A stretch of 59,876 nucleotides of DNA, filler included, from 4 parts of 4 records of this genome joined end to end with filler, not necessarily neighbours in it; one strand, 5' to 3'. Counted from the first letter of the whole stretch, positions 2,342 through 43,543 are shown. The notes: generated by a model not told the origin, from the sequence alone. Made by a program: numbers and translations.

Positions 2342-3478
2342 TTAATTAAATATTACTACGCCCAGTAGTGGAAGTAATAAAAATGTAACCAATACATAAA
2401 GTATTGCAATATACCTTCTTTTAGCAGTTATAACACTGAGTCTTTTTGCCAAATTAATTGGAAAATTCCTTACGGCTTTTACTGGATAAACAATAATGAC
2501 ACCAATTAAGTTAAAAAATACATGATGGAGTGCAATAGTTAATCCTGCTGGATCGTCAACAGCAAAGCTAGCTAAAACAGCTGTAATTGTTGTGCCAATA
2601 TTTGCACCAAGGGTTATTGGAAAAGCATTTTCAATAGATAGGATTCCTGAACCAACAATTGGCACAAGGATTGATGTGGTGATACTTGAGCTTTGTACTG
2701 AGAAGGTAATTAAGATTCCAATTAATATTGCAAAAAGTCCCCCACCCCTTGCAAGAGCTTTGTCTAATCCAAATTCAATTTGATTGAGCATGAGAGATTT
2801 CATATTAGATACAACATTTCTTAGGCTCAAGAAAATAAATGCTATTGCAATAATAATTAAAAAAACTGCATAGACCCTATAAGAGTTTTCACTTAGATTG
2901 CCTATAAATGGGATAGAAGATAATCCGTCTAATAGATTATTTGAACCCCACTTAATTCCTGCCTTAATTGGACTATTTGGTTTAGTTGCTGTAAAACCTG
3001 TGGCGATAATAAAATCTGTTCCATTTTCAGCCATCTTTGTTATAAACCCTGTATATAAATCAAGGGGGAAAAGTATTATTACCACTAATAAATTAAAAAA
3101 GTCATGCATCGTTGAGGCTGCAAATGCTCTTTTAAATTCCTGTTCTCTTCTTACGTGACCAAAAGAGACTAAGGTATTAGTTACAGTTGTTCCAATATTT
3201 GCTCCCATAACCATCGGTATTGCATATTCCAAGCTGAGGACTCCACTTCCAACTAAACCAACAATTGTTGCAGTAGTAACGGAGGAAGATTGCACTAAAA
3301 CTGTACATAAAATTCCAACCAGTAAACCAGCAAAAGGATTCGATACTGACTCAAAAAGTGCATCTGTGTATTCTGCACCTAAAGTTTTGATTCCTTTTTC
3401 AAGAAGTTTGATTGATACAAGGAAGAAGTAGAGGAAAAATATTGCAAAGCTTAAATTTTTAAAAGATTTTAAATTCAT
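2342..3478 (-). CDS. nptA: Na+/phosphate cotransporter (NptA/SLC34 family)
   Basis: Duplicated signature motifs VQSSS...GANIGTT; hydrophobic. Confidence 0.9.
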   Translation of the reverse strand: MNLKSFKNLSFAIFFLYFFLVSIKLLEKGIKTLGAEYTDALFESVSNPFAGLLVGILCTVLVQSSSVTTATIVGLVGSGVLSLEYAIPMVMGANIGTTVTNTLVSFGHVRREQEFKRAFAASTMHDFFNLLVVIILFPLDLYTGFITKMAENGTDFIIATGFTATKPNSPIKAGIKWGSNNLLDGLSSIPFIGNLSENSYRVYAVFLIIIAIAFIFLSLRNVVSNMKSLMLNQIEFGLDKALARGGGLFAILIGILITFSVQSSSITTSILVPIVGSGILSIENAFPITLGANIGTTITAVLASFAVDDPAGLTIALHHVFFNLIGVIIVYPVKAVRNFPINLAKRLSVITAKRRYIAILYVLVTFLLLPLLGVVIFN

Positions 3479-3523
3479 ATTCCGTACAAATTATATATGA
3501 GTTTAAATTAAATTAAATTTAGA

Positions 3524-3550
3524 TTTACTACTAGTTTACTTAACGTTTAC
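3524..3550. promoter_or_regulatory. Candidate Pho-box: TTTAC x3 at 11-nt period upstream of nptA
   Basis: TTTAC at 3524, 3535 and 3546; the same unit recurs upstream of pstC and pstS. Confidence 0.55.
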
Positions 3551-4243
3551 TTTTGAAAATATTATTGAAAATGTTGAACCAAAACTAAGTTTGCTTTCTA
3601 TTTCAATTCTTGCATTATTTCTATCAATAGCATGCTTGACAATTGCTAAACCTAACCCTGTCCCCCCTAGTTTTCGAGACCTGCCTTTATCTACTCTATA
3701 AAATCTTTCAAATATCTTTTCTTGATCTGCTTTAGATATTCCAGATCCATAATCTTGAAAGGAGCAAATTATCTCAGAAGTACTTTCCTCTGTTTTAATA
3801 AATATATTTTCTTCAGGGGGTGAATATTTAAGAGCATTTTTGATTAAATTTTTAACAGCAATGGAGATATCATCATAATTTGCAAAAATCTCAGCTTTAG
3901 TTTTTTTATATCCCACTCTCTTCTTATTTTGTTTCGAAAGATATGAAATCTCATTTGAAATCACGTCATGTAAATCTATTACTTCCATGTCAATATCTGA
4001 AGTTTCCATTAAAGAAAGGTCTAGCAAATCAGAAATCAATTCGTTCATGCGATCTGAATCCCTAAGAATTTGCTCTAAAAATGATTTTGCCATTCCATCA
4101 TTTAGTTTTAAAGACCTTAGTGCGGATTCAGCAGCTAGTCTCACAGAAGCTACAGGAGTTTTTAATTCATGAGAAGCATTTGCTATAAACTCTTCTTTAA
4201 TCCTTGTAATCTCTAAGAACTCTTCTGTATTATCATTCATCAA
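3536..4243 (-). CDS. Phosphate-regulon histidine kinase (SenX3/PhoR-like), catalytic core only
   Basis: H-box ASHELKTP, N-box NLIKNALKYS, F-box IFERFYRVD, GGTGLGL; no TM or PAS region. Confidence 0.85.
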   Translation of the reverse strand: MMNDNTEEFLEITRIKEEFIANASHELKTPVASVRLAAESALRSLKLNDGMAKSFLEQILRDSDRMNELISDLLDLSLMETSDIDMEVIDLHDVISNEISYLSKQNKKRVGYKKTKAEIFANYDDISIAVKNLIKNALKYSPPEENIFIKTEESTSEIICSFQDYGSGISKADQEKIFERFYRVDKGRSRKLGGTGLGLAIVKHAIDRNNARIEIESKLSFGSTFSIIFSKVNVK

Positions 4244-4946
4244 TAAGTTTGTATCCCATACCTCTAATAGTTGTAAGTCTTTTTGGTTTTTTAGGATTTT
4301 CCTCTATTCTTTCTCTAATTCTTTGTATATGCACATCAAGTGTTTTAGAGTTTCCAACAAAACTATAACCCCAGACTTGATCAAATAATTCCTCTCTTGA
4401 AACTAAGTTACCAGCATTGTCACATAAAAAATAAAGTAATTCAAACTCTCTGGGTCTTAAGTCAATAAGCTCTCCCTTTACTTTTGCTTCGTATCTAAGT
4501 GGACTCATTTCAATATCCCCAACAATTATTTTGTCATTATCTGCAAAGTTAGTTTTTTGGCTTCCATTTGTAGGAGGTGAAAACTGCGATCTTCTCATAA
4601 CAGCCTTAACACGGCTAATTAATTCTTTAACAGAAAAAGGTTTCGTAATATAATCATCCGCACCAATTTCTAAACCTGTAATTTTATCTACTTCATCATC
4701 TCTAGCGGTCACCATTATTATTGGAACGTTTGAAGTTTTTCTTATAGATCTGCATATATCTAAACCAGAAATTTCAGGAAGCATAATATCCAGTATTACT
4801 AAATCAAAATGTTCTTCTTCAAATAGATCTAAGGCAATTGGACCTTCATCAACATGAGTTACCTTCATACCTTCATTTTTAAGATTATAAATTATCCCTT
4901 CGGCAATACTTTTTTCATCTTCTACAAGTAAGATTTTATTTGCCAT
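4233..4946 (-). CDS. OmpR-family response regulator (RegX3/PhoB-like)
   Basis: LLVEDE, LDIMLP, GADDYITKPFS, KTLDVHIQRIR; sits in the pst operon. Confidence 0.88.
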   Translation of the reverse strand: MANKILLVEDEKSIAEGIIYNLKNEGMKVTHVDEGPIALDLFEEEHFDLVILDIMLPEISGLDICRSIRKTSNVPIIMVTARDDEVDKITGLEIGADDYITKPFSVKELISRVKAVMRRSQFSPPTNGSQKTNFADNDKIIVGDIEMSPLRYEAKVKGELIDLRPREFELLYFLCDNAGNLVSREELFDQVWGYSFVGNSKTLDVHIQRIRERIEENPKKPKRLTTIRGMGYKLIDE

Positions 4947-5587
4947 TAGAACTCCTTAAACTCTCCAGTGACTAAAAATGAGGCTAGTTCGCATATATCT
5001 ACAGCGTGATCCCCACCTCTTTCTAAAGTCCTCACACATGTTATTAGTCTAAATAATCCACTGTATAAGTCTTTATTACCAGAAATATTAGGTACTTCAT
5101 TTAGCATTTTATTGTATAGGCTGTTTATAAGTTCATCTTTTCTTGCAGTTGATAGGGCTAGTTCAGCGTCTCTGTTTTTTAAACTTTCTAATGCTGAAGA
5201 AGCCATGTCGATTACCATATCACCCATTTCAATGACAATTTTATGTAAACTTTCTGGAATCGGTAAATCATGTATTTCGTGGGTTGTTTTTCCTAAATAA
5301 ACAGATAAATCGCCAAGTCTTTCCAAGTGTAAGCTTGCTTGCAGAATTGATGTTGAGAGTCTTAAATCTGAAGCTACAGGCTGTTCCGTAGCCATAAGTT
5401 CGAACCAGTCTTGATCGATCTTCATATATGCATCATCTATCTCATCATCTTTATCAATCACTACTGATGCTTTTGCAATATCTTTGTCTTCTAACGCTCT
5501 TACGGCGCTTACCAACGATTCAAGAACTAAAGTTCCCATAATGTGTAAATCAGTTTCTAGATTATTTATTTTCTGTTCTAAGCTCAT
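4946..5587 (-). CDS. phoU: Phosphate signalling protein PhoU
   Basis: [27 protein letters not shown]; downstream of pstB. Confidence 0.92.
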
Positions 5588-6390
5588 CCAAACCTCCCAC
5601 TTATATATTCTTCTGTTAAGCTTTCAGATGGATTTGTAAACATAGTTTTTGTATCGCTATATTCTACTAATTCACCAGTCCTTCTTCCGTCATCAGTTGC
5701 CTTTGTTGTAAAAAAAGCACAGTAGTTAGATACTCTTGATGCTTGCTGCATGTTATGAGTCACTATAAGTATGGAAAAGTCTTTTACTAATATCTGCATT
5801 AAATCTTCAATTTTTTTAGTTGCAACTGGGTCTAGTGCTGAACATGGTTCATCCATCAAAATTGTGTCTGGTTCGACTGCAATTGTTCTTGCAATACATA
5901 GTCTTTGTTGTTGACCTCCAGAAAGATCGAGTGCATTTTTATCTAGGTCGTTTTTAACTTCACCCCAAAGAGCTGCCTGTGTAAGTGCTTTTTCAACTCT
6001 GTCATCTAAATTGTCGGTCATATTATTAACCTTTAATCCAAAAGTTATATTTTCTCGAATTGATTTTGGAAATGGATTTGGTTTTTGAAAAACCATACCA
6101 ATTCTTCTTCGTACCTGGACTGGATCTACTTCTTTATCGTATAGGTTTATGCCTTGATAATTTATTTCACCGTTTACAGCAGCATTAGGAATCAGATCAT
6201 TCATTCTATTAAATGATCTGATAAGGGTGCTTTTACCACAACCTGATGGGCCTATGAAGGCAGTGATGTTATTTTTAAACATATCCATAGAGACATTCTT
6301 TACTGCCGTAAAATCTCCGTAACTTACCGATACATCTCTAACTGTAAAAACATAATCTAACTCTTTTTTTGTTGTTATCTTAGTTTCCAT
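5584..6390 (-). CDS. pstB: Phosphate ABC transporter ATPase
   Basis: [43 protein letters not shown]. Confidence 0.96.
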
Positions 6391-6407
6391 TTATTCCTCC
6401 CTGATTA

Positions 6408-7328
6408 TTACCAATCTTTTTCAAATCTATTTCTAATAATTAAAGCCAAAGCATTCATGCTTAAAAGCAAACCAAGCAATAGTATTATTCCCGCAGATGA
6501 TGTATCTTTCCATTCAGATTGTGGGTACCCTATCCAGTTATAAACTTGGATTGGTATGGCAGTAAATCCACTAAGAGGGGTGTCTGGATAATAATTAACA
6601 TAAGTTAGTGCACCCATAAAAATTAATGGGGCTGTTTCACCAATCGCTCTAGATAAACCAAGGACCATTCCTGTTACCATTCCAGGAATTGCTGAGGGAA
6701 CAACTTGTCTAAATATTGCCTGGAATCTTGTTGACCCCAAAGCTAATGCACCTTGTCTAATTGTGTCAGGAACCGCTTTTAAAGCTTCTCTCGAAGCAAC
6801 AATGACCACAGGAAGAATTAATAAAGTTAAAGTTAAGCCACCAGATAATACTGATCTTCCAAAGCCAGCAAGTCTAACAAAAACTGCTAGACCCATTAAT
6901 CCATAAATTACTGATGGGACTCCTGCTAAATTAGTTAAATTTAACTCAATAAACCTTGTTAATTTATTTCTTGGAGCAAATTCTTGCAGATATATCGCCG
7001 CACCTGCACCGAGTGGGAATGTAGCCACAATTACAATAACCATAAGCCAGATGGTTCCAGCAAACGCTGGTCCTATGCCCGCTTTTAGTGGGTCTCTGGA
7101 ATCTAAACTTGTTAAGAAGTCTTTTGGGTTATCAATTGTTACCTTATTAATTAGTCCTAATTCATAATCACTTAATAAACGAGAGTAACCTGTAGAGATA
7201 ACATCATAGATAAGTGTCATTAAAGTAAATATTGCTACTGTTACACAAAGATACAAAATAGTTAAAAAGGCTAATTCTTTTAACTCTCTCTCTTTTTTTG
7301 AACCCTTTAACAATTGACTATTGTTCAT
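6408..7328 (-). CDS. pstA: Phosphate ABC transporter permease PstA
   Basis: NLAGVPSVIYGL, SRAIGETAPL. Confidence 0.95.
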   Translation of the reverse strand: MNNSQLLKGSKKERELKELAFLTILYLCVTVAIFTLMTLIYDVISTGYSRLLSDYELGLINKVTIDNPKDFLTSLDSRDPLKAGIGPAFAGTIWLMVIVIVATFPLGAGAAIYLQEFAPRNKLTRFIELNLTNLAGVPSVIYGLMGLAVFVRLAGFGRSVLSGGLTLTLLILPVVIVASREALKAVPDTIRQGALALGSTRFQAIFRQVVPSAIPGMVTGMVLGLSRAIGETAPLIFMGALTYVNYYPDTPLSGFTAIPIQVYNWIGYPQSEWKDTSSAGIILLLGLLLSMNALALIIRNRFEKDW

Positions 7329-10312: not shown

Positions 10313-10412
10313 NNNNNNNNNNNNNNNNNNNNNNNNNNNNNNNNNNNNNNNNNNNNTTAATTAATTAANNNNNNNNNNNNNNNNNNNNNNNNNNNNNNNN
10401 NNNNNNNNNNNN
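10313..10412. other. Artificial contig spacer
   Basis: N-run with TTAATTAATTAA (stops in six frames); gene content and composition change across it. Confidence 0.98.
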
Positions 10413-22751: not shown

Positions 22752-23331
22752 AGTATTTATCTCCACTTCTTCTAGATAAATCATCAACAATTGCAGATAT
22801 GCTGCTATTATTTACTTCAGCACCAATAAGCTTTTGTATTAGTTCTGATGAAGTTTCGATAGCTATTTTGTTGATTTTATCAGGTGCACCGTTACGCAGG
22901 CTCTTTATTTCTTCCTCTGCTTTACTTATTTCTTCATCAATTTGACCGTCTAACACTTCTTTTTTAGCATTAATGTCTTTTAAAGCTTTTTCTCTAGCTT
23001 GATTGAAGATAGTTTTTGCCTCAAGTTTGCTTTTGGAAATAATTTCCTCATACTCTTTTAGCTTCATTTCACTATCTTCTCTCTGTTTCTCTGCAGCCTC
23101 AATATTTTCTAATATCTGTGATTTACGTGTTTCTAAGTTTGCACTTATTTTTGGTAGTATTAGTTTTGACAAAACTAAGTACAAAATACCAAAAGTAAGT
23201 GTTAACCAAAAAATCTGTGAAATCCAAAATTCAGGGTTTAATTGAGGCATACCTCCGCTTTCAGCTGCAAAAGCTTCCATCGAAAATAGGAAACTAAAAA
23301 ATATAGACTGAAAATATATTTTTTTAATCAT
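22741..23331 (-). CDS. ATP synthase F0 subunit b'
   Basis: GGMPQLNP...SQIFWL, LPKIS; alphaproteobacterial b' type. Confidence 0.88.
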   Translation of the reverse strand: MIKKIYFQSIFFSFLFSMEAFAAESGGMPQLNPEFWISQIFWLTLTFGILYLVLSKLILPKISANLETRKSQILENIEAAEKQREDSEMKLKEYEEIISKSKLEAKTIFNQAREKALKDINAKKEVLDGQIDEEISKAEEEIKSLRNGAPDKINKIAIETSSELIQKLIGAEVNNSSISAIVDDLSRRSGDKYYGN

Positions 23332-23345
23332 TAAATTTAAAATGC

Positions 23346-23445
23346 NNNNNNNNNNNNNNNNNNNNNNNNNNNNNNNNNNNNNNNNNNNNTTAATTAATTA
23401 ANNNNNNNNNNNNNNNNNNNNNNNNNNNNNNNNNNNNNNNNNNNN
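23346..23445. other. Artificial contig spacer
   Basis: N-run with TTAATTAATTAA. Confidence 0.98.
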
Positions 23446-23627
23446 TAAAAGTATAACCGTTTTATCATTATAAGTTGCTCCCCCTATTAGGTTTGAACCA
23501 AATGATTTCCTATAGGGAGAAAAAATTAACTCCGATATAAAAACCACTCCGATTAGGGTTTAAGGGAAAAGTATTTTCTCGGTTACAAGAAACCTCATCT
23601 TTGAAATACTGATATACTAATCAATTC

Positions 23628-23659
23628 AGAAGATTTGAAGAGAGTCTATCAAATCTTCT
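23628..23659. terminator. Hairpin downstream of the HTH gene
   Basis: AGAAGATTTGA / TCAAATCTTCT inverted repeat. Confidence 0.6.
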
Positions 23660-23666
23660 TATTCCT

Positions 23667-23879
23667 TCATTCTGATACACTTTGATTATTTAACCTCTTA
23701 ACTGAAGAATTCCCTTTCAAACTATTCTCCCACTCTAATAAATCCTTTTCTGTGATGTATTTTGAATGAGTTGATACTTCTATCATCTTCAATCCTCTAT
23801 TTTTTCTCCAATCTTCTATGGTTACTCTATCTACTCCGTAGAGTTCCATTAAATCCTTTTTACTCAATCTTCTTTCCAT
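23667..23879 (-). CDS. Excisionase-like helix-turn-helix protein
   Basis: LSKKDLMELYGVDRVTIEDWRKNRGL...YITEKDLLEW fits the MerR/HTH_17-type Xis pattern. Confidence 0.7.
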   Translation of the reverse strand: MERRLSKKDLMELYGVDRVTIEDWRKNRGLKMIEVSTHSKYITEKDLLEWENSLKGNSSVKRLNNQSVSE

Positions 23880-24054
23880 ATACTTTTATCTCTTCTTTCT
23901 CTAATAGTTCTCTAAGTTTTCTTTTATAGGTTTGTTTATCTCCTGATAATCTATACTTCTCTATTCTATGGTAGAAATTCTTAATCAGTTCTGATTTCTT
24001 CTTTAACATATCTACCATATGTCTTGCTTGTTCATCTGTTATCTTTTCTTTCAT
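23860..24054 (-). CDS. Hypothetical 64-aa basic protein
   Basis: ATG ORF overlapping the next gene; same composition as the rest of the element. Confidence 0.55.
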   Translation of the reverse strand: MKEKITDEQARHMVDMLKKKSELIKNFYHRIEKYRLSGDKQTYKRKLRELLEKEEIKVYGKKIE

Positions 24055-24537
24055 ATTATTTCCATTCAGATTTAATTAAAAATGTAATAACCTCGTACTT
24101 GAAATACTTTATCAGTTCGAGGTTGATACTCTTTATTTTAAACTTTTCAGTTGATTTAAGTTAAGTAGTTATTAGATACAGTAATCCCCTTTGAGGGTTT
24201 TTACTCCTTCAGAATAGTGAGTTTTAAATTTCCTCTGACCAGTTAGTTTTCATCCCCCATATCAGATTTATAGTAAAACCATTTTTGTAACTATCGGTGA
24301 AACCTTTTCTGTTATGTTTAGATGTTATTTCAATCCCACAGAATACTAACCAACTTCTAACCCTAATCCTTTCCCCATCTTCGTTTCCTCATCTATGGTT
24401 GTTGGATAAAGGGTGGTCTACTCTGAACCCCTATGATGGAGAGTAGGTTACATCTATAAATATTAGAAACTTTAGAAAACGTAAAGAAAATGAGTAAAAA
24501 AGAAGAAATAACTTCTGCCAAATCTAACAGAGGTTGT

Positions 24538-24612
24538 TAGTACCCTATATTTAGTACCCATAAGATTTTGATAGTACCCTATAGGTACTTAATTTAGTAC
24601 CCAAGGGCACTA
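24538..24612. repeat. TAGTACCC repeats (candidate integrase arm sites, family A)
   Basis: Direct copies at 24538, 24552, 24572 and 24595; degenerate inverted copy GGGCACTA at 24605. Confidence 0.75.
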
Positions 24613-24663
24613 TTATTTTATATAACTAATTGCATATCAGTATATAAAAATATGGTATTGGTA

Positions 24664-24675
24664 CTGGAGGTACCA
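24664..24675 (+). other. Candidate att core resembling the 3' end of a Bacteroidota tRNA-Phe
   Basis: CTGGAGGTACCA followed by a terminator and the integrase; the tRNA-Phe match is from recall and unverified; no full tRNA present. Confidence 0.5.
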
Positions 24676-24682
24676 CTTTAAT

Positions 24683-24726
24683 AACTCTCTAATAAACTGA
24701 ATATTAGTTAATTAGAGAGTTTTTTA
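24683..24726 (+). terminator. Rho-independent terminator after the att core
   Basis: AACTCTCTAAT / ATTAGAGAGTT stem followed by a T-run. Confidence 0.7.
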
Positions 24727-24808
24727 TTGTTCTTAATTCAAAAAAGAACAATATAAAGAACAACTTAACGGTTCATTTTGTAACTTTATAGGGTGTAAAT
24801 AAGAACAA
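24727..24808. repeat. AAGAACAA repeats (candidate integrase arm sites, family B)
   Basis: Inverted copy at 24727; direct copies at 24744, 24756 (12-nt spacing) and 24801. Confidence 0.65.
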
Positions 24809-24811
24809 CCT

Positions 24812-26392
24812 ATGAGTATTTTCTACAAACTTAATTACCTTAAAAAGAAGGAGTTGTACTCACAAGAGGATTCCCTTACAATTCAAGTTGTTTATTACCA
24901 TAGAAAGAAACGAGTTCCATTCACCACCAATGTAGAAGTTAAAATAAAAGATTGGGATGAAAATTGGAGAACTAAAAGAACCAACGAACCTATCTTACCA
25001 TCCGATAGTAATCACAAAACCAAAAACATCTTGTTGTTCCAAAAATGGAAAGAACTGAAAGATGTAATCTTTGAGATTAGAAAGAATGATATGATACCCA
25101 CCACTGATTTGGTTAAATCATACATGAGAAGAGGATTGGTTCAGAAATTAGATGATTCCAATAAAGAGATTCTCTTTGAGATGTATTTAGAGAAGTATTT
25201 AAGTTGGATAAAATCTCCTCAATACTTAATTGAAACGAGAAACTCTCCATCCTATGTAAGAAGTGTTATAGGAAGTGTAAATGATATAATCAGATTCACA
25301 AAAGAATACCAAATCAAAAACTCTATCAAACTCCTACCATCTGATATAAATAAGGATTATACCAACGGACTGATAATTTACTCAGATAAGAGAGGATTAC
25401 AACCCTCAACAATAAAGAAGAGAATAAAAGTTCTTGTAATGTTTAGTAAGTGGTTAGAAGAAAACCATAGGGTTAAAATGGTAGTTTCTAAACCAAAAAG
25501 AGATAAGGATAAAGAAAGGGATATTATTTTCTTTAAGGATGAAGAAATTGTTCTTCTTCATGACTTCAAAGGGTTTGAGTATGAAAGAAATAAGTTTTCT
25601 AAATTCTATCCAAAGGATGTAAAGAAGATTGAATTCTTTTACGATTCACTCAAAAACAATAAAGTAAAAAAATACACTAACTATGAAGTTTATAAAGATT
25701 TACTATTGATGTTATGTGGGTTGGGATTGAGGTTTGTTGATGGAGTAAATCTAAAACTTATCCACTTCAAAGAATTAGATAAGAGAACTAAAAACGAACG
25801 AAGAGATTCTTTCGTTAGGGGTGAGTTTGTTTTAACACCTCAAAAAACCAATGTGATAGTTAGGATTCCCAATACACCCTTAACATGGGAGATATATAAA
25901 AAGTATTCAAGTGGAAAAAACGTAGATGATTATTTATTCCCACGAACATCAAAGGGTAATCCTATATCAAATCAGAAATTCAATAAACACATTAAAGAGA
26001 TTGGAAAAATAGTTGGATTAAATAGAGTAATTCTTAAACCCAAATACGATTGGAATAATCAAGTAGTTAGTGGTTCAGATGAGGTTCAGAGATTACATCA
26101 ACTTATCACATCACACATTGGTAGAAAAACTATGATTAGAACCTATGTTGATGTTGGTTACGATAGAAAAACTATTATGAATATATGTGGTATACAGAAT
26201 TACAAAACACTTGATGTTTATTATGAAACATCCGAGAAGGATAGATTTAAGTTTAACAACCTACTTCATCAAAATATTGATACAAATCTGAAATCTAATG
26301 AAGATGTAATGGATGAGAAGGATAAGTTATTCCAAATGTATAAGAATGGAGATTTAACATGGAACCAATTGGGTAAATTGTTAAATGATTAG
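24812..26392 (+). CDS. Tyrosine recombinase/integrase (Bacteroidota type), alanine-free
   Basis: N-terminal arm-binding-like region; catalytic GLRFVD, QKT, ISNQKFNKHIKEIG, SHIGRKT and terminal Y (LDVYY); zero Ala in 526 aa. Confidence 0.9.
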   Translation: MSIFYKLNYLKKKELYSQEDSLTIQVVYYHRKKRVPFTTNVEVKIKDWDENWRTKRTNEPILPSDSNHKTKNILLFQKWKELKDVIFEIRKNDMIPTTDLVKSYMRRGLVQKLDDSNKEILFEMYLEKYLSWIKSPQYLIETRNSPSYVRSVIGSVNDIIRFTKEYQIKNSIKLLPSDINKDYTNGLIIYSDKRGLQPSTIKKRIKVLVMFSKWLEENHRVKMVVSKPKRDKDKERDIIFFKDEEIVLLHDFKGFEYERNKFSKFYPKDVKKIEFFYDSLKNNKVKKYTNYEVYKDLLLMLCGLGLRFVDGVNLKLIHFKELDKRTKNERRDSFVRGEFVLTPQKTNVIVRIPNTPLTWEIYKKYSSGKNVDDYLFPRTSKGNPISNQKFNKHIKEIGKIVGLNRVILKPKYDWNNQVVSGSDEVQRLHQLITSHIGRKTMIRTYVDVGYDRKTIMNICGIQNYKTLDVYYETSEKDRFKFNNLLHQNIDTNLKSNEDVMDEKDKLFQMYKNGDLTWNQLGKLLND

Positions 26393-26401
26393 ATACAAAT
26401 C

Positions 26402-26506
26402 GGAAGGGGTTGATGTATGTATCATTATAGGTAAATGAACAGTTCCCCTTCCTCATTGTACCTCCCCAATTATTGAAGTTACTGATATGAGATGGTGTAA
26501 TTGGGG
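26402..26506. terminator. Two adjacent long-loop inverted repeats between convergent genes
   Basis: GGAAGGGG/CCCCTTCC (26402-26452) and CCCCAATTA/TAATTGGGG (26464-26506). Confidence 0.5.
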
Positions 26507-26509
26507 TTC

Positions 26510-26803
26510 TTATCTAAATAGTTCGTTCCCCATTTTTGAGAACTTTTCTACTTCTATTTCTTTTCTGATATCGTTGTTCTTAACTGAGTTGAGTTCTACT
26601 ACTCTTTTCTGAAGGAGGAATCCAATAACGGAAACTGAATCAATGATTCTTCGGTTCTTCCACTTTGAGGATTTGAAGAATCCATTCTTTATATATTGGA
26701 ACACAGTTCTTCTACTAACCCCTAACTTTTCAGAACAATCATCTACCGTTATCCATCGGTAAACCTCCAAACCTTCTATTTTTTCTTCAAAGGGATTTTC
26801 CAT
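26510..26803 (-). CDS. Helix-turn-helix DNA-binding protein (excisionase-like)
   Basis: WITVDDCSEKLGVSRRTVFQYIKNG; ATG overlaps the upstream stop. Confidence 0.75.
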   Translation of the reverse strand: MENPFEEKIEGLEVYRWITVDDCSEKLGVSRRTVFQYIKNGFFKSSKWKNRRIIDSVSVIGFLLQKRVVELNSVKNNDIRKEIEVEKFSKMGNELFR

Positions 26804-27321
26804 TACCAAATCTTTCCTTTAAGGTTCTTTACCTCATCAACTATATATCTTCGTTGAGGTGATGTTAGTTGAACATACTCACCCCAATTGATGGAGTAGT
26901 TTTCATCTACTCCACATATTTTAATTAGGTGATTACCACTCCCATCAAAAACAGAAGTTCCATTCTCATCCTTTACAAATCCAATAAGTTTCTTATCACC
27001 TCCTTCACCTATCCATCTGAAAGGAACGATTGAGTTGTAACTTTTATTTACAGAATCCAACTTTTGATTTAATCCCAATGAATAGGATGGTAAGTATTGT
27101 TTCCATTCATTGTATCGTTGGAGGAGGTTTGTAATATCCTTAAAATCCATATCTGTGTTTTCCTTTAGGGTTTTAATGATTCCATCTCTATCTGAGGGAA
27201 TCCAACCTCTTTCACACATATGGTTTAACACCAATACATCGGTGTATTTCATAATTCCTTTGATTCCACTTTCCCTTAGTGTTTGAATCAAACCATCAAT
27301 TTCGTATTCGTTTATTTCCAT
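26803..27321 (-). CDS. Hypothetical protein of the GpC-free element
   Basis: 172-aa ORF with no Ala and no recognised family. Confidence 0.7.
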   Translation of the reverse strand: MEINEYEIDGLIQTLRESGIKGIMKYTDVLVLNHMCERGWIPSDRDGIIKTLKENTDMDFKDITNLLQRYNEWKQYLPSYSLGLNQKLDSVNKSYNSIVPFRWIGEGGDKKLIGFVKDENGTSVFDGSGNHLIKICGVDENYSINWGEYVQLTSPQRRYIVDEVKNLKGKIW

Positions 27322-27415
27322 ATTTCTAATTCTTATTTGTTCATTGAGTGTAATATCATTTCACACTTATAAGTATTAGAGAGTGATTTTTTTTATATTT
27401 TTAAAAAAATTATAG

Positions 27416-28060
27416 ATGTTTAAAAATGTATTTCTGATTGTTCTACTGGCATTTTCAATTACAAATTATGCCCAAAAAACAAATCTACCTGGTAAACTAC
27501 TATGGGTAAATGGAAACCTTCCTGAAAACTCAAGTTATTTTAATTATAAAGTTGTCCAAGGAGATGGAGAAAGTCTAAAAAAATCTCAGGACAACGCTGT
27601 CTCATCTCTATTATTTGAACTAGCAAGTGAACAAAAAATTAATATCACATACGAAGCTATTTCATCAACTCAAGAATTAATCAGAAACAATAATGAAAGT
27701 TCTTACTCAATAGATTTCAAAGACAAATCAAAAATAAACAGTTCCTTTACCGCTATATTTTCAAAAGTTGACGAATATTTTGAAATCTTGGATGATTTAA
27801 GTGGTGAGAAAATATACAGAACTTGGCAATTGTATGTTGTTGGAGAAGAAGCAAAACGTATAATCCCAAAATTAAACTACACAAATAAATATTCTTTCTC
27901 AGAAGCTGGATACAAATCGTTATTAGTACCAGGATGGGGTCAATTTCACAAAAAACAAAACACAAAAGGATTTTTGTTTTTAGTTGCAGGAATTGGTTCA
28001 AACTCCCTCATCTGTTTCTACATTAAGAGCATTACCATAAGTTGTACCAATTTGATTTGA
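27416..28060 (+). CDS. Exported hypothetical protein (DUF5683-like motif), probably truncated near 27995
   Basis: Signal peptide; SLLVPGWGQF motif; C-terminal tail overlaps an antisense FN3 remnant. Confidence 0.6.
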   Translation: MFKNVFLIVLLAFSITNYAQKTNLPGKLLWVNGNLPENSSYFNYKVVQGDGESLKKSQDNAVSSLLFELASEQKINITYEAISSTQELIRNNNESSYSIDFKDKSKINSSFTAIFSKVDEYFEILDDLSGEKIYRTWQLYVVGEEAKRIIPKLNYTNKYSFSEAGYKSLLVPGWGQFHKKQNTKGFLFLVAGIGSNSLICFYIKSITISCTNLI

Positions 28061-28099
28061 GGCGTATGCCCTTATAGAATAACTTGTTGAGGGTTGTAA
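27998..28099 (-). pseudogene. Fibronectin type III domain C-terminal remnant
   Basis: Own translation LQPSTSYSIRAYASNQIGTTYGNALNVETDEGV-stop; no start codon before the upstream in-frame stop. Confidence 0.6.
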
Positions 28100-35558: not shown

Positions 35559-36296
35559 CTACAGCATTTTTAACTGCTGTACTTCCGTTTGCGTTAAGTG
35601 ACGCCAATGGCCTCGAGGGAGGTCTTTTTTGGTTAAGCCAGCAAACATCACACGGTCTAGTGCAACAATTTCATAGCCCAAATGTTCAAATAATTTTCTT
35701 GCTACACGGTTTCTACTCGATTGTAGCGCAACGCCTATTTCGCGTTTTGATGCCCCATGAACATAGCTAATTTCTTCAGATTTTATCACACTGCCGTCTA
35801 CAGAAACGCCATCGCGAATTTGTTGTAAATCCCCAGTTTTAACCACTTTGTCCAATACCACATGGTACAGGGTTTTCGCGCCACTGCTAGGGTTTGTTAA
35901 TTTCTTCGCTAGATCACCATCATTCGTAAAAAAAAGCAGGCCTGTAGTGGGGCGTTCAAGCCTTCCTACGGGTACGATACGGGCTTTAGTCGCATTGGCA
36001 ACCAACTCCATTACGGTTTTCCGTCCTTTCTCATCTCGAGTGTTTGTAATAAAGCCTTTGGGCTTATTTAATAGTACGTAGGTAGGCTTTTCGGATTGTA
36101 ATTTGCGCCCATCAAAATGCACAACGTCACTAGGCTTGACTTTATAGCCCATCTCGGTCATAACTTTATTGTTCACCTTTACCATGCCCAATTGAATGTG
36201 CATATCGGCTTCTCTACGAGAGCAGATGCCCGCGTGAGCGATAAATTTATTTAGTCGAATTCCTGTTGTTTCCTTTTGAGGTTGGCCTTTTTTCAT
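35559..36296 (-). CDS. rRNA pseudouridine synthase (RluB/RsuA family)
   Basis: S4 domain RLNKFIAHAGICSRREAD, LNKPKG, PVGRLE (E at the usual catalytic D). Confidence 0.85.
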   Translation of the reverse strand: MKKGQPQKETTGIRLNKFIAHAGICSRREADMHIQLGMVKVNNKVMTEMGYKVKPSDVVHFDGRKLQSEKPTYVLLNKPKGFITNTRDEKGRKTVMELVANATKARIVPVGRLERPTTGLLFFTNDGDLAKKLTNPSSGAKTLYHVVLDKVVKTGDLQQIRDGVSVDGSVIKSEEISYVHGASKREIGVALQSSRNRVARKLFEHLGYEIVALDRVMFAGLTKKDLPRGHWRHLTQTEVQQLKML

Positions 36297-43443: not shown

Positions 43444-43543
43444 NNNNNNNNNNNNNNNNNNNNNNNNNNNNNNNNNNNNNNNNNNNNTTAATTAATTAAN
43501 NNNNNNNNNNNNNNNNNNNNNNNNNNNNNNNNNNNNNNNNNNN
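43444..43543. other. Artificial contig spacer
   Basis: N-run with TTAATTAATTAA. Confidence 0.98.

Follow-up and report, generated by a model that had tools for sequence, protein, structure and literature searches.

We analyzed a window of 59,876 nucleotides (nt), consisting of four contigs laid end to end, in which positions 23446 to 27448 contain almost no 5'-GC-3' dinucleotide. The region appears to comprise parts of two mobile islands, members of a family that inserts into the 3' ends of tRNA genes in marine Flavobacteriaceae and in a small number of other Bacteroidota. The loss of GC is a natural trait of this lineage, common to close and distant homologs, and it affects the nucleic acid itself, noncoding DNA as well as every codon phase. 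Because GCN is the only alanine codon family and the DNA lacks GC, the proteins encoded by the islands are made almost without alanine. We propose, with a probability of about 0.5, that the islands evade a DNA-directed attack that recognizes GpC and that is met in their own life cycle.

GC depletion in the window and among homologs

In the full listing of GC dinucleotides in the window, none falls within 24633 to 27448, the next being at 27449, and between 23345 and 27448 only five occur, at 23477, 24026, 24517, 24607, and 24632. A first-pass annotation, made by a model from the sequence alone, had reported the same five survivors and a GC-free stretch of about 2.8 kb, and the recount reproduced its positions exactly. 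The core from 24634 to 27448 (2,815 bp, 30.9% G+C) would be expected to hold 67 GC dinucleotides by base composition, a number first estimated at about 60, and 87 if GC had the odds ratio seen in the left flank (1.26 to 1.3), yet it holds 0. The words CG, GG, and CC are all present there, as had been stated, with 28, 96, and 105 occurrences, and AC and GT show no strand asymmetry (148 versus 142). The longest GC-free gap in the window measures 2,817 bp; the next two (549 and 491 bp) are also found in this region, whereas elsewhere the maximum is 325 bp. Calculated per 1-kb segment, the GC odds ratio was 0.17, 0.00, and 0.00 for the segments starting at 24001, 25001, and 26001, far from 1, and 0.91 to 1.98 for the remainder, apart from 0.74 at 23001 and 0.44 at 27001, the two segments that span its boundaries with the surrounding DNA. 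Each of the five survivors is part of a TGC on one or the other strand, and RGCY is not represented among them, again in agreement with the first reading.

The trait recurs in homologs of the integrase encoded in the core, many of which likewise sit in GpC-free DNA. Among the best 120 of 181 matches with an E value of ≤0.001, ranging from 99% down to 33% identity, 90 have no alanine, 29 have 1 to 5, and one has 13, and alanine-free relatives recovered by an exhaustive search without a profile reach about 27 to 29% identity. Ordinary integrases of about 400 amino acids have 6 to 34 alanines. DNA was obtained for 40 genome loci and 80 metagenome loci, and GC was counted in integrase matches of at least 900 nt, which were available for 39 and 78 of them, respectively. 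The integrase was entirely free of GC in 68 of the 78 metagenome loci, with 1 to 3 GC in 6, 4 to 10 in 4, and more in none; among the 39 genome loci it had 0 in 14, 1 to 3 in 3, 4 to 10 in 21, and 29 in one. For a control set of 19 ordinary phage integrase loci from IMG/VR, the GC odds ratio was 0.97 to 1.24 and no GC-free stretch exceeded 264 bp. Carriers include four cultured strains (Maribacter sp. Asnod1-A12, Flagellimonas iocasae KCTC 62196, Lentiprolixibacter aurantiacus M415, and Draconibacterium sediminis JN14CK-3), a complete Arcticimaribacter chromosome, single-cell genomes, and metagenome-assembled genomes (MAGs) from both short and long reads, and such an integrase was present in 4 of 301 sampled Flavobacteriaceae species genomes. 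The 19 sequencing runs that hold words sampled from the element come from 13 studies dated 2014 to 2025, and 13 runs hold at least half of the words. None of 36 listed population variants creates a GC, versus 2.4 expected, numbers that are too few for significance.

The first-pass annotation had considered that close homologs with normal GC use, and no natural GpC-free relatives, would point to an artifact. An artifactual, engineered, or chimeric origin would be in keeping with the start of the GC-poor region at a contig end and with a right junction (about 27391 to 27411) that falls in a low-complexity A/T run and is unseen in four mapped runs. However, the trait is found in 117 further genome and metagenome loci, among them four cultured isolates and one complete chromosome, and words of the element recur in runs of many studies, which leaves such an origin hardly credible and limits any doubt to the right junction of this contig.

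In the islands, about 190 bp separates the integrase gene from a tRNA-Phe, tRNA-Met, or tRNA-Asp gene upstream of it, and the last 13 to 24 nt of the tRNA gene are repeated directly at the far end (L005, L014, L045, L013, L027, and G002). Sizes run from 4 to about 17 kb, with a complete element of 4.0 kb in L126, and arrays reach 26 kb, with three attachment (att) cores in tandem in L013 and L027. Between the repeats, L014 (6,546 bp), L005 (7,846 bp, a spacing also seen in three metagenome contigs), and L045 (5,732 bp) have no GC at all, so that the GC-free tract coincides with the element. G002 has 4 GC in 16,896 bp, and leaky relatives have 20 in 5,536 bp (L013), 19 in 7,480 bp (L027), and 62 in 6,012 bp (L017). 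Among four loci that were extended, GC-free stretches of 15,876 bp (G001) and 26,498 bp (G004) were found. The att cores of the tRNA-Phe sites and of most tRNA-Met sites have no GC; where the tRNA end does contain one (L014, L045, and G002), that GC stays in the core.

In G001, a Maribacter isolate, one tRNA-Met repeat pair encloses both the 15.9-kb GC-free island (L024 9841 to L041 about 4346) and, beyond it as far as the repeat at joined position 35805, about 10 kb of DNA that does contain GC and has another recombinase gene; two unlike elements appear to occupy one site. G004 (L032 plus L044 5141-19881) has 26.5 kb without GC, but its genes are fragmented, with the integrase split and hsdM, hsdS, and hsdR in pieces, reflecting either long-read indel errors in a MAG or decaying tandem copies that are still GC-free.

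Extent of the purge and the alanine-free gene pool

For 100 depleted zones pooled to 579 kb, alanine codons (GCN) numbered 140, versus 10,543 in the flanks, NGC codons 59 versus 4,110, and GC dinucleotides across codon junctions 57 versus 4,452, each coding class being about 1.3 to 1.4% of the flank count. Noncoding GC fell to 1.4 per kb from 33 per kb in the flanks, and in a stricter pool of 175 kb the GC odds ratio was 0.04, versus 1.14 in the flanks. The pooled counts agree with the earlier claim that the loss covers all three codon phases and intergenic DNA, and the purge is one of the nucleic acid. Since GC is lost from NGC codons and from codon junctions just as completely as from GCN codons, avoidance of alanine or of tRNA-Ala was rejected as its cause.

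Across the depleted zones of the loci obtained first, 222 open reading frames (ORFs) encode 45,731 amino acids with 48 alanines (0.10%), compared with 7.15% in flanking ORFs, and the island proteins of the window have none, apart from a single alanine in a 64-amino-acid protein. The genes seen repeatedly are those for the integrase (22 loci), a small protein with the helix-turn-helix (HTH) domain HTH_17 (13 loci), a resolvase (10 loci), and a pair encoding an HTH_17 protein and a 172-amino-acid protein (6 to 7 loci). The cargo is putatively antiphage, to judge by matches to known defense families: Type I restriction-modification (R-M) genes for HsdM, HsdS, and HsdR, AbiH (E value, 5e-28), an HNH nuclease, PDC-S18, and a set of MotA/ExbB-like, OmpA-like, and HNH_4 genes resembling Zorya type II. 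Other cargo comprises a ParB-fused N6/N4 methylase, a DUF5906 protein, and a large serine recombinase. A PHROG scan of ten further island proteins gave one family only, of unknown function. Replication-type matches were to DUF5906 in L005 (E value, 1.5e-4) and to REP_ORF2-G2P (E values, 0.0016 to 0.005), both below cutoffs, and no relaxase family was recognized among the island proteins in general Pfam scans, in which alanine-free proteins score low and many small ORFs go unmatched. Among the best 120 homologs of the island HsdM (80 to 100% identity), 113 have no alanine and 7 have one or two, whereas normal Flavobacteriaceae relatives have 21 to 54 alanines.

If these proteins work, they are, as far as we know, the first natural set of working proteins without one of the twenty amino acids, and the set includes a 570-amino-acid methylase, a 790-amino-acid helicase-nuclease, and recombinases. 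Hundreds of natural alanine-free enzymes with normal relatives make up a ready experiment in reduced-alphabet protein evolution, and since islands occur in culturable strains, the question is directly testable. Intermediate states were also observed. The HsdM of L070 (G210:C1:2649871-2654568) is 69% identical to the alanine-free form and has 7 alanines and 31 GC, compared with 0 of each in the GC-free form and with 21 to 31 alanines and about 50 to 85 GC in normal homologs, as would a gene either entering the GC-free pool or having left it. In L095, positions 2793 to 6944 carry ParB-methylase and MotA/OmpA-like genes with about 35 GC in 4.1 kb, followed by 4.8 kb with none, and this cargo may have been caught midway through the purge.

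A possible attack on GpC and its alternatives

The islands also avoid other short words. With expectations from a second-order Markov model, the observed/expected ratio in the islands versus the host flanks was 0.12 versus 0.80 for GATC, 0.33 versus 0.74 for CTAG, 0.40 versus 0.79 for CCGG, 0.50 versus 0.83 for CATG, 0.62 versus 0.78 for ACGT, and 0.68 versus 0.97 for TCGA. This pattern points to strong pressure on the islands from site-specific DNA cleavage. The depletion of GATC is nearly as striking as the loss of GC. Palindromes of A and T only, and GTAC, are not avoided; GTAC is present in the att core and in repeated GTACC motifs nearby.

Of the 149 GC dinucleotides that survive in the 175-kb pool, 30% are in TGCA, versus 10% in the flanks, and those in noncoding DNA recur in motifs: a TTGC box and a TCGCTAC box at a spacing of 19 nt in front of the methylase gene, CTTGCACAAGAATATAT, and the palindromes TGCTGATTATCAGCA and AGTTGCAACT. 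We infer that these motifs are putative promoters or operators and that, in them as in the att cores, sites needed for protein binding can keep a few GC. The TGC bias of the survivors in the window is real, but as a clue to the agent it is weakened, being largely explained by TTGC and TGCA motifs of regulatory appearance.

In the mechanism that we favor, the attack would strike an island when it is excised, transferred, or inside a phage-infected cell, and the attacker could be a nuclease that acts in recipient cells in the manner of restriction or one with which a phage degrades host DNA. Every GC would be a target and copies with fewer GC would survive better, ending in a GC-free and alanine-free gene pool within which modules are exchanged, with a few GC kept where function demands them, in att cores whose sequence the tRNA fixes and in motifs resembling promoters or operators. 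In support of this mechanism, islands that encode their own ParB-fused DNA methylase are leakier, with 1.69 GC per kb outside that gene, compared with 0.44 in those without it, a correlation that is uncorrected for shared descent. A phage nuclease would leave no trace in the host chromosome, the infected cell being lost anyway, and staying intact would then be of gain to small, defense-carrying islands that resemble minimal phage satellites. That marine Bacteroidota or their phages possess an undescribed attack on a 2-bp DNA word, GpC, and that a mobile pool has been rewritten to a 19-amino-acid alphabet, is a tentative proposition that falls somewhat short of even odds. If it is true, the rewritten pool spans integrases, excisionases, resolvases, Type I restriction, abortive-infection, and Zorya-like genes, and methylases, and the islands are carriers of defense that stay intact and expressed while ordinary cell DNA is destroyed. 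The GpC-directed activity behind it, a nuclease, a modification-dependent system, or a deaminase, would be of interest for microbial immunity and as a tool.

Several points weigh against an attack on GpC. We know of no GpC-specific nuclease in bacteria or their phages, and none turned up here, where no search was aimed at such an enzyme. Host methyltransferases, which the first-pass annotation had brought up, gave a divided picture: a C5 cytosine methylase is encoded in 2 of 5 host genomes and not in the other three, so the current hosts do not all protect GpC in that way. Palindromes with a GC core are unavoided in the host flanks (AGCT, 0.94; GGCC, 0.85; TGCA, 0.95; GCGC, 1.13; and CGCG, 0.93), where a shared host restriction system acting on GC-core sites would be expected to leave a trace. 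CG is only halved (0.48 in islands versus 0.77 in flanks), though it is removable at no amino acid cost, and general site avoidance therefore cannot explain the specific abolition of GC. Residual GC is 2.8 times denser in noncoding DNA (1.44 per kb) than in coding DNA (0.51 to 0.61 per kb), which a pure DNA-level model does not predict unless the sites are functional, and the single GC tolerated in the att cores of L014, L045, and G002 means that one site is not lethal. In leaky islands, AGCT and GGCC are no rarer than nonpalindromic GC contexts; in light of this, the unavoided host palindromes, and the halved CG, ordinary 4- to 6-bp restriction sites are insufficient. Escape from a GC-targeting agent, as first put forward, is the reading that we retain, but RGCY or 4-bp GC-core palindromes alone do not fit, and something that reads GC itself without shaping the host chromosome would seem to be implied.

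A phage with the same bias, another suggestion from the first pass, was not found in IMG/VR or in phage collections. Relatives identified in IMG/VR with the integrase profile were only 25 to 30% identical and had normal GC, the ParB-methylase had no IMG/VR match, and HsdM yielded 23 IMG/VR loci, none GC-free and three partly depleted (L175, L177, and L178). Phage and plasmid collections gave only matches of ≤31% identity. L178, an IMG/VR contig of 15,296 bp that is classed as viral, is GC depleted throughout (about 0 to 11 GC per 500 bp), and its HsdM is 61% identical to the alanine-free form; with L175 and L177 it may represent another lineage in which the depletion is partial. The idea that the integrase needs a GC at its crossover, as in CTnDOT, was set aside, the tRNA-Phe cores and most tRNA-Met cores being without GC. 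For CTnDOT, site-to-site identity, not sequence, is reported to be what matters (PMC2817482).

The same depletion could be produced by mutation without selection, for example, by a cytosine deaminase or similar activity acting in GpC context on a single-stranded intermediate. Bacterial DNA deaminases with a 5'-GC preference exist, the loss is uniform across codon phases and noncoding DNA, and the GC-free state persists in the apparently fragmented genes of G004. However, C-to-T changes at GC would turn alanine into valine or threonine, and alanine was replaced mainly by serine, which needs G to T. At nine HsdM columns where at least 60% of 15 normal homologs have alanine, the alanine-free form has serine at five and cysteine, glycine, valine, and isoleucine at one each; over all HsdM alanine cells, serine makes up 27%, cysteine 9%, and valine plus threonine 11.5%. 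Relative to the flanks, the island proteome has 0.90 times as much valine and 0.95 times as much threonine. In the DNA, the rise of GT and AC does not exceed that of GA, GG, TC, and CC, and AC and GT are symmetric. A signature of deamination was thus absent from the dinucleotides, the HsdM replacements, and the proteome; in addition, functional GC remains in att cores and conserved motifs. We consider a mutational sink quite improbable. The replacements look as though they were chosen for function, and there is good support for a purge kept by purifying selection on DNA, not by codon or amino acid preference or by mutational bias. Selection at the level of RNA would be exerted by an endoribonuclease that destroys ordinary mRNAs by cutting at GC, for example, a toxin, an effector of abortive infection, or a shut-off enzyme of a phage, with only GC-free transcripts of the island staying translatable, and as GC is its own reverse complement it would clear both DNA strands. 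Short-motif mRNA interferases, such as the GCU-specific MqsR, exist, and islands carry abortive-infection cargo such as AbiH. The fuller purge of coding DNA would also follow, as would the survival of noncoding GC in promoter- or operator-like motifs, which are not expected in transcripts. Yet noncoding DNA is still depleted 23-fold, with no GC up to the att repeats in many elements, the avoidance of GATC, CTAG, CCGG, and CATG is a DNA-level signature, and no RNase is universal, the smallest elements consisting of an integrase, HTH proteins, and one or two small ORFs. Such an explanation is unlikely.

Two further alternatives keep the selection on DNA and change its source. The pool might itself encode a GC-directed weapon, for instance, an HNH nuclease or a restriction system, with self distinguished from non-self by the absence of targets in the islands, and alanine-free nuclease and restriction cargo is indeed frequent (Type I R-M, HNH proteins, and Zorya-like modules). 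No candidate is universal, however; complete elements of 4.0 to 5.7 kb and the 2.7-kb module of the window are free of nucleases yet GC-free, and the host chromosome, rich in GC sites, would suffer first, so that we give this idea little credence. Very promiscuous islands might instead practice generalist avoidance in which no agent is specific for GC, dropping the dinucleotide common to most restriction sites along with GATC, CTAG, CCGG, and CATG. The strong avoidance of several palindromes is in its favor, and restriction-site avoidance is a recognized viral strategy (PMC6286503, PMC4687349). Generalist avoidance does not account for nonpalindromic contexts that are purged as fully as AGCT or GGCC or for a cost-free CG that is only halved, and payment with all alanines implies a large benefit per GC site; it too is a poor prospect.

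Organization of the window and comparison with known systems

The first-pass annotation had treated 23446 to 27448 as one mobile element. The mobile character is borne out by a tyrosine integrase and a tRNA-Phe att core, but the comparison with relatives indicates two elements in tandem, 23446 to 24663 being the end of a neighboring element and 24664 to 27391 the integrase module of a second (Table 1). This reading is based on the match of the ORFs and of a conserved noncoding motif in the first part to the right end of L027-type elements: the two ORFs belong to clusters at the right ends of L004, L020, L022, and L027, and the motif, 147 nt before the att core, has the same spacing in the window and at the internal core of L027. 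The second part is 98.6% identical to metagenome locus L095, the integrase proteins being 100% identical and both flanks unlike. Contigs of runs X4 and X13 have the rest of tRNA-Phe left of 24664 and unlike sequence after 27411, and a contig of run X7 bridges 24516 to 24676 as in the window. Likeness to other copies stops at 27391 (L095) to 27411 (X4 and X13), before the ORF at 27416. GC does return inside that ORF, as first described, but the element has ended earlier. There the second element meets 41% G+C DNA in the low-complexity A/T run, with no attR core, through either a deletion or a mis-join; none of the four mapped runs covers 27430 to 28093, and two possible source runs hold 98 to 99% of sampled words.

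Table 1. Features in and beside the GC-poor region of the window
Position	Strand	Feature	Basis
23446-24663		GC-depleted right-end fragment of neighboring element of the same family, 5 GC, cut by contig start	ORF clusters, conserved motif spacing
23667-23879	-	HTH_17 (excisionase/AlpA-like) protein, 70 amino acids, 0 alanine	PF12728, PHROG excisionase/regulator
23860-24054	-	64-amino-acid protein, one alanine (GC at 24026)	Cluster 9, 5 loci
24529-24549, 24563-24583	+	Two 21-nt direct repeats containing TAGTACCC, left of att core	Family D8, 86% alike
24664-24676	+	att core CTGGAGGTACCAC, last 13 nt of tRNA-Phe, left end of integrase-bearing element	Exact match
24677-24811	+	Conserved leader: hairpin and T-run past tRNA end, integrase upstream region, 0 GC	Near-invariant between window and L001-L003
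24812-26392	+	Tyrosine integrase, 526 amino acids, 0 alanine, 0 GC	PF00589, PHROG
26510-26809	-	HTH_17 (excisionase/AlpA-like) protein, 99 amino acids, 0 alanine	PF12728 (E value, 1.3e-5), PHROG excisionase (E value, 5.9e-6)
26803-27321	-	Conserved 172-amino-acid protein, 0 alanine	Cluster 8, 6 loci
27322-27411		Conserved upstream region of the 172-amino-acid gene	TATAAGTATTA.AGAG block kept among copies
27416-28060	+	Flanking ORF, 214 amino acids, in 41% G+C Flavobacteriaceae DNA, outside element	First GC at 27449

The integrase matched PF00589 with 27.9 bits (cutoff, 27.1) over residues 292 to 474 and the PHROG integrase with an E value of 9e-17. Among 21 sequences with identities as low as 32%, no variation was seen at R307, K345, H435, R438, or Y470, the putative catalytic Arg, Lys, His-x-x-Arg, and Tyr. 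The 13-mer CTGGAGGTACCAC has one exact match in the whole window, aligns to the 3' end of tRNA-Phe in L001 to L003, and is the direct repeat that bounds the 7,846-bp element of L005; the window itself contains no tRNA gene. Four closely spaced copies of TAGTACCC are present at 24537 to 24600, within the end of the neighboring element, and may be arm-type sites bound by the integrase or excisionase. The 70-amino-acid HTH_17 protein (cluster 1, in 13 loci) scored 26.9 bits against PF12728, slightly below the 27-bit cutoff (E value, 5.9e-6), and had an E value of 8.9e-6 against the PHROG excisionase/regulator. No Pfam family was found for the 64-amino-acid protein. The 99-amino-acid HTH_17 protein (cluster 7) adjoins the gene for the 172-amino-acid protein in all 7 of its loci. 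Copies of the latter are 52 to 64% identical to one another, with no Pfam or PHROG family and no usable match in the protein atlas. Its structural model (predicted local distance difference test, 72) had no Foldseek match at an E value of ≤0.001, and the top VIA-align Z score, 7.0, was to a designed protein and within background. Low-depth contigs of RNA run X14 lie on the integrase and the two downstream genes, where carryover of DNA is possible.

The four contigs of the window are joined by three identical linkers, N44-TTAATTAATTAA-N44, at 10313-10412, 23346-23445, and 43444-43543, so adjacency across them carries no meaning, and the GC-poor region begins at a contig start, 23446. Farther along the same contig, an ApbC gene product is 88 to 90% identical to proteins named Flavobacteriaceae. 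Outside the GC-poor region, two compositional populations were observed, 1 to 23345 and 27449 to 59876. Contigs 1 and 2 have about 30% G+C, a CpG odds ratio of 0.46, and housekeeping genes (oxoacid:ferredoxin oxidoreductase, threonine synthase, and crtI/crtY), and in the rest G+C is 41 to 47% and the CpG odds ratio is 0.88. Each population seems to be flavobacterial, and two organisms may share one bin.

Neither elements without GC dinucleotides nor proteins without alanine are described in the full-text literature that was searched, a body that excludes subscription-only papers, and the first-pass statement that no described family has this property holds to that extent. The type of element is familiar; the property appears to be new. 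As with palindrome avoidance in phages and plasmids, short words are far below chance (GATC, CTAG, CCGG, and CATG at 0.12 to 0.50 of expectation), and the logic of restriction-site avoidance is shared, in that every site is open to attack and survival improves as sites are lost. In known cases, however, sites of 4 to 8 bp are lost by synonymous changes, whereas the islands have lost a 2-bp word whatever its context, along as much as 26 kb, and have given up one of the twenty amino acids for it, with no cognate enzyme known and no matching avoidance in the host.

In their organization, the islands are like the NBU-type and IntDOT/IntN1-type elements of Bacteroidota, whose composition is, as far as we know, normal: a tyrosine integrase at the tRNA-proximal end, insertion in a tRNA 3' end, and a repeat of 13 to 24 nt. 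Many of the integrase homologs carry PF17293 or PF13102, the Bacteroidota-type N-terminal domains, neither of which was detected in the protein of the window. Unlike NBU-type elements, the islands have an integrase only about 23% identical to those of Bacteroides and Parabacteroides, and no relaxase or mobilization gene was recognized in the scanned proteins. The GC dinucleotide that is conserved in the overlap region of CTnDOT (PMC2817482) has no counterpart in the islands, most of whose att cores are GC-free.

The islands also resemble phage satellites (PICMI, PICI, and P4-like) in being small (4 to 17 kb) and marine, with an integrase, an AlpA-like HTH protein, few small genes, and variable antiphage cargo, and we know of no report of a PICI, PICMI, or P4-like family that lacks a dinucleotide. 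Unlike for satellites, no helper phage, packaging signal, or clear replication protein is apparent; the replication candidates are one DUF5906 protein and one weak Rep-like match, and no close relative was found in IMG/VR or a phage collection, which is uninformative on packaging. PICMIs are reported to depend on virulent phages and to protect their hosts (PMC10803314). They occur in Vibrionaceae next to fis and not at tRNA genes, whereas the islands occupy tRNA 3' ends of Flavobacteriaceae. Finally, the cargo (Type I R-M, AbiH, HNH nuclease, PDC-S18, the Zorya II-like MotA/OmpA/HNH set, and the ParB-methylase) is that of defense islands, but unlike in other defense islands all of it is recoded without alanine and forms a gene pool of its own. 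Indeed, the alanine-free HsdM proteins are 80 to 100% identical to one another among the best 120 homologs and only 45 to 52% identical to their normal relatives.

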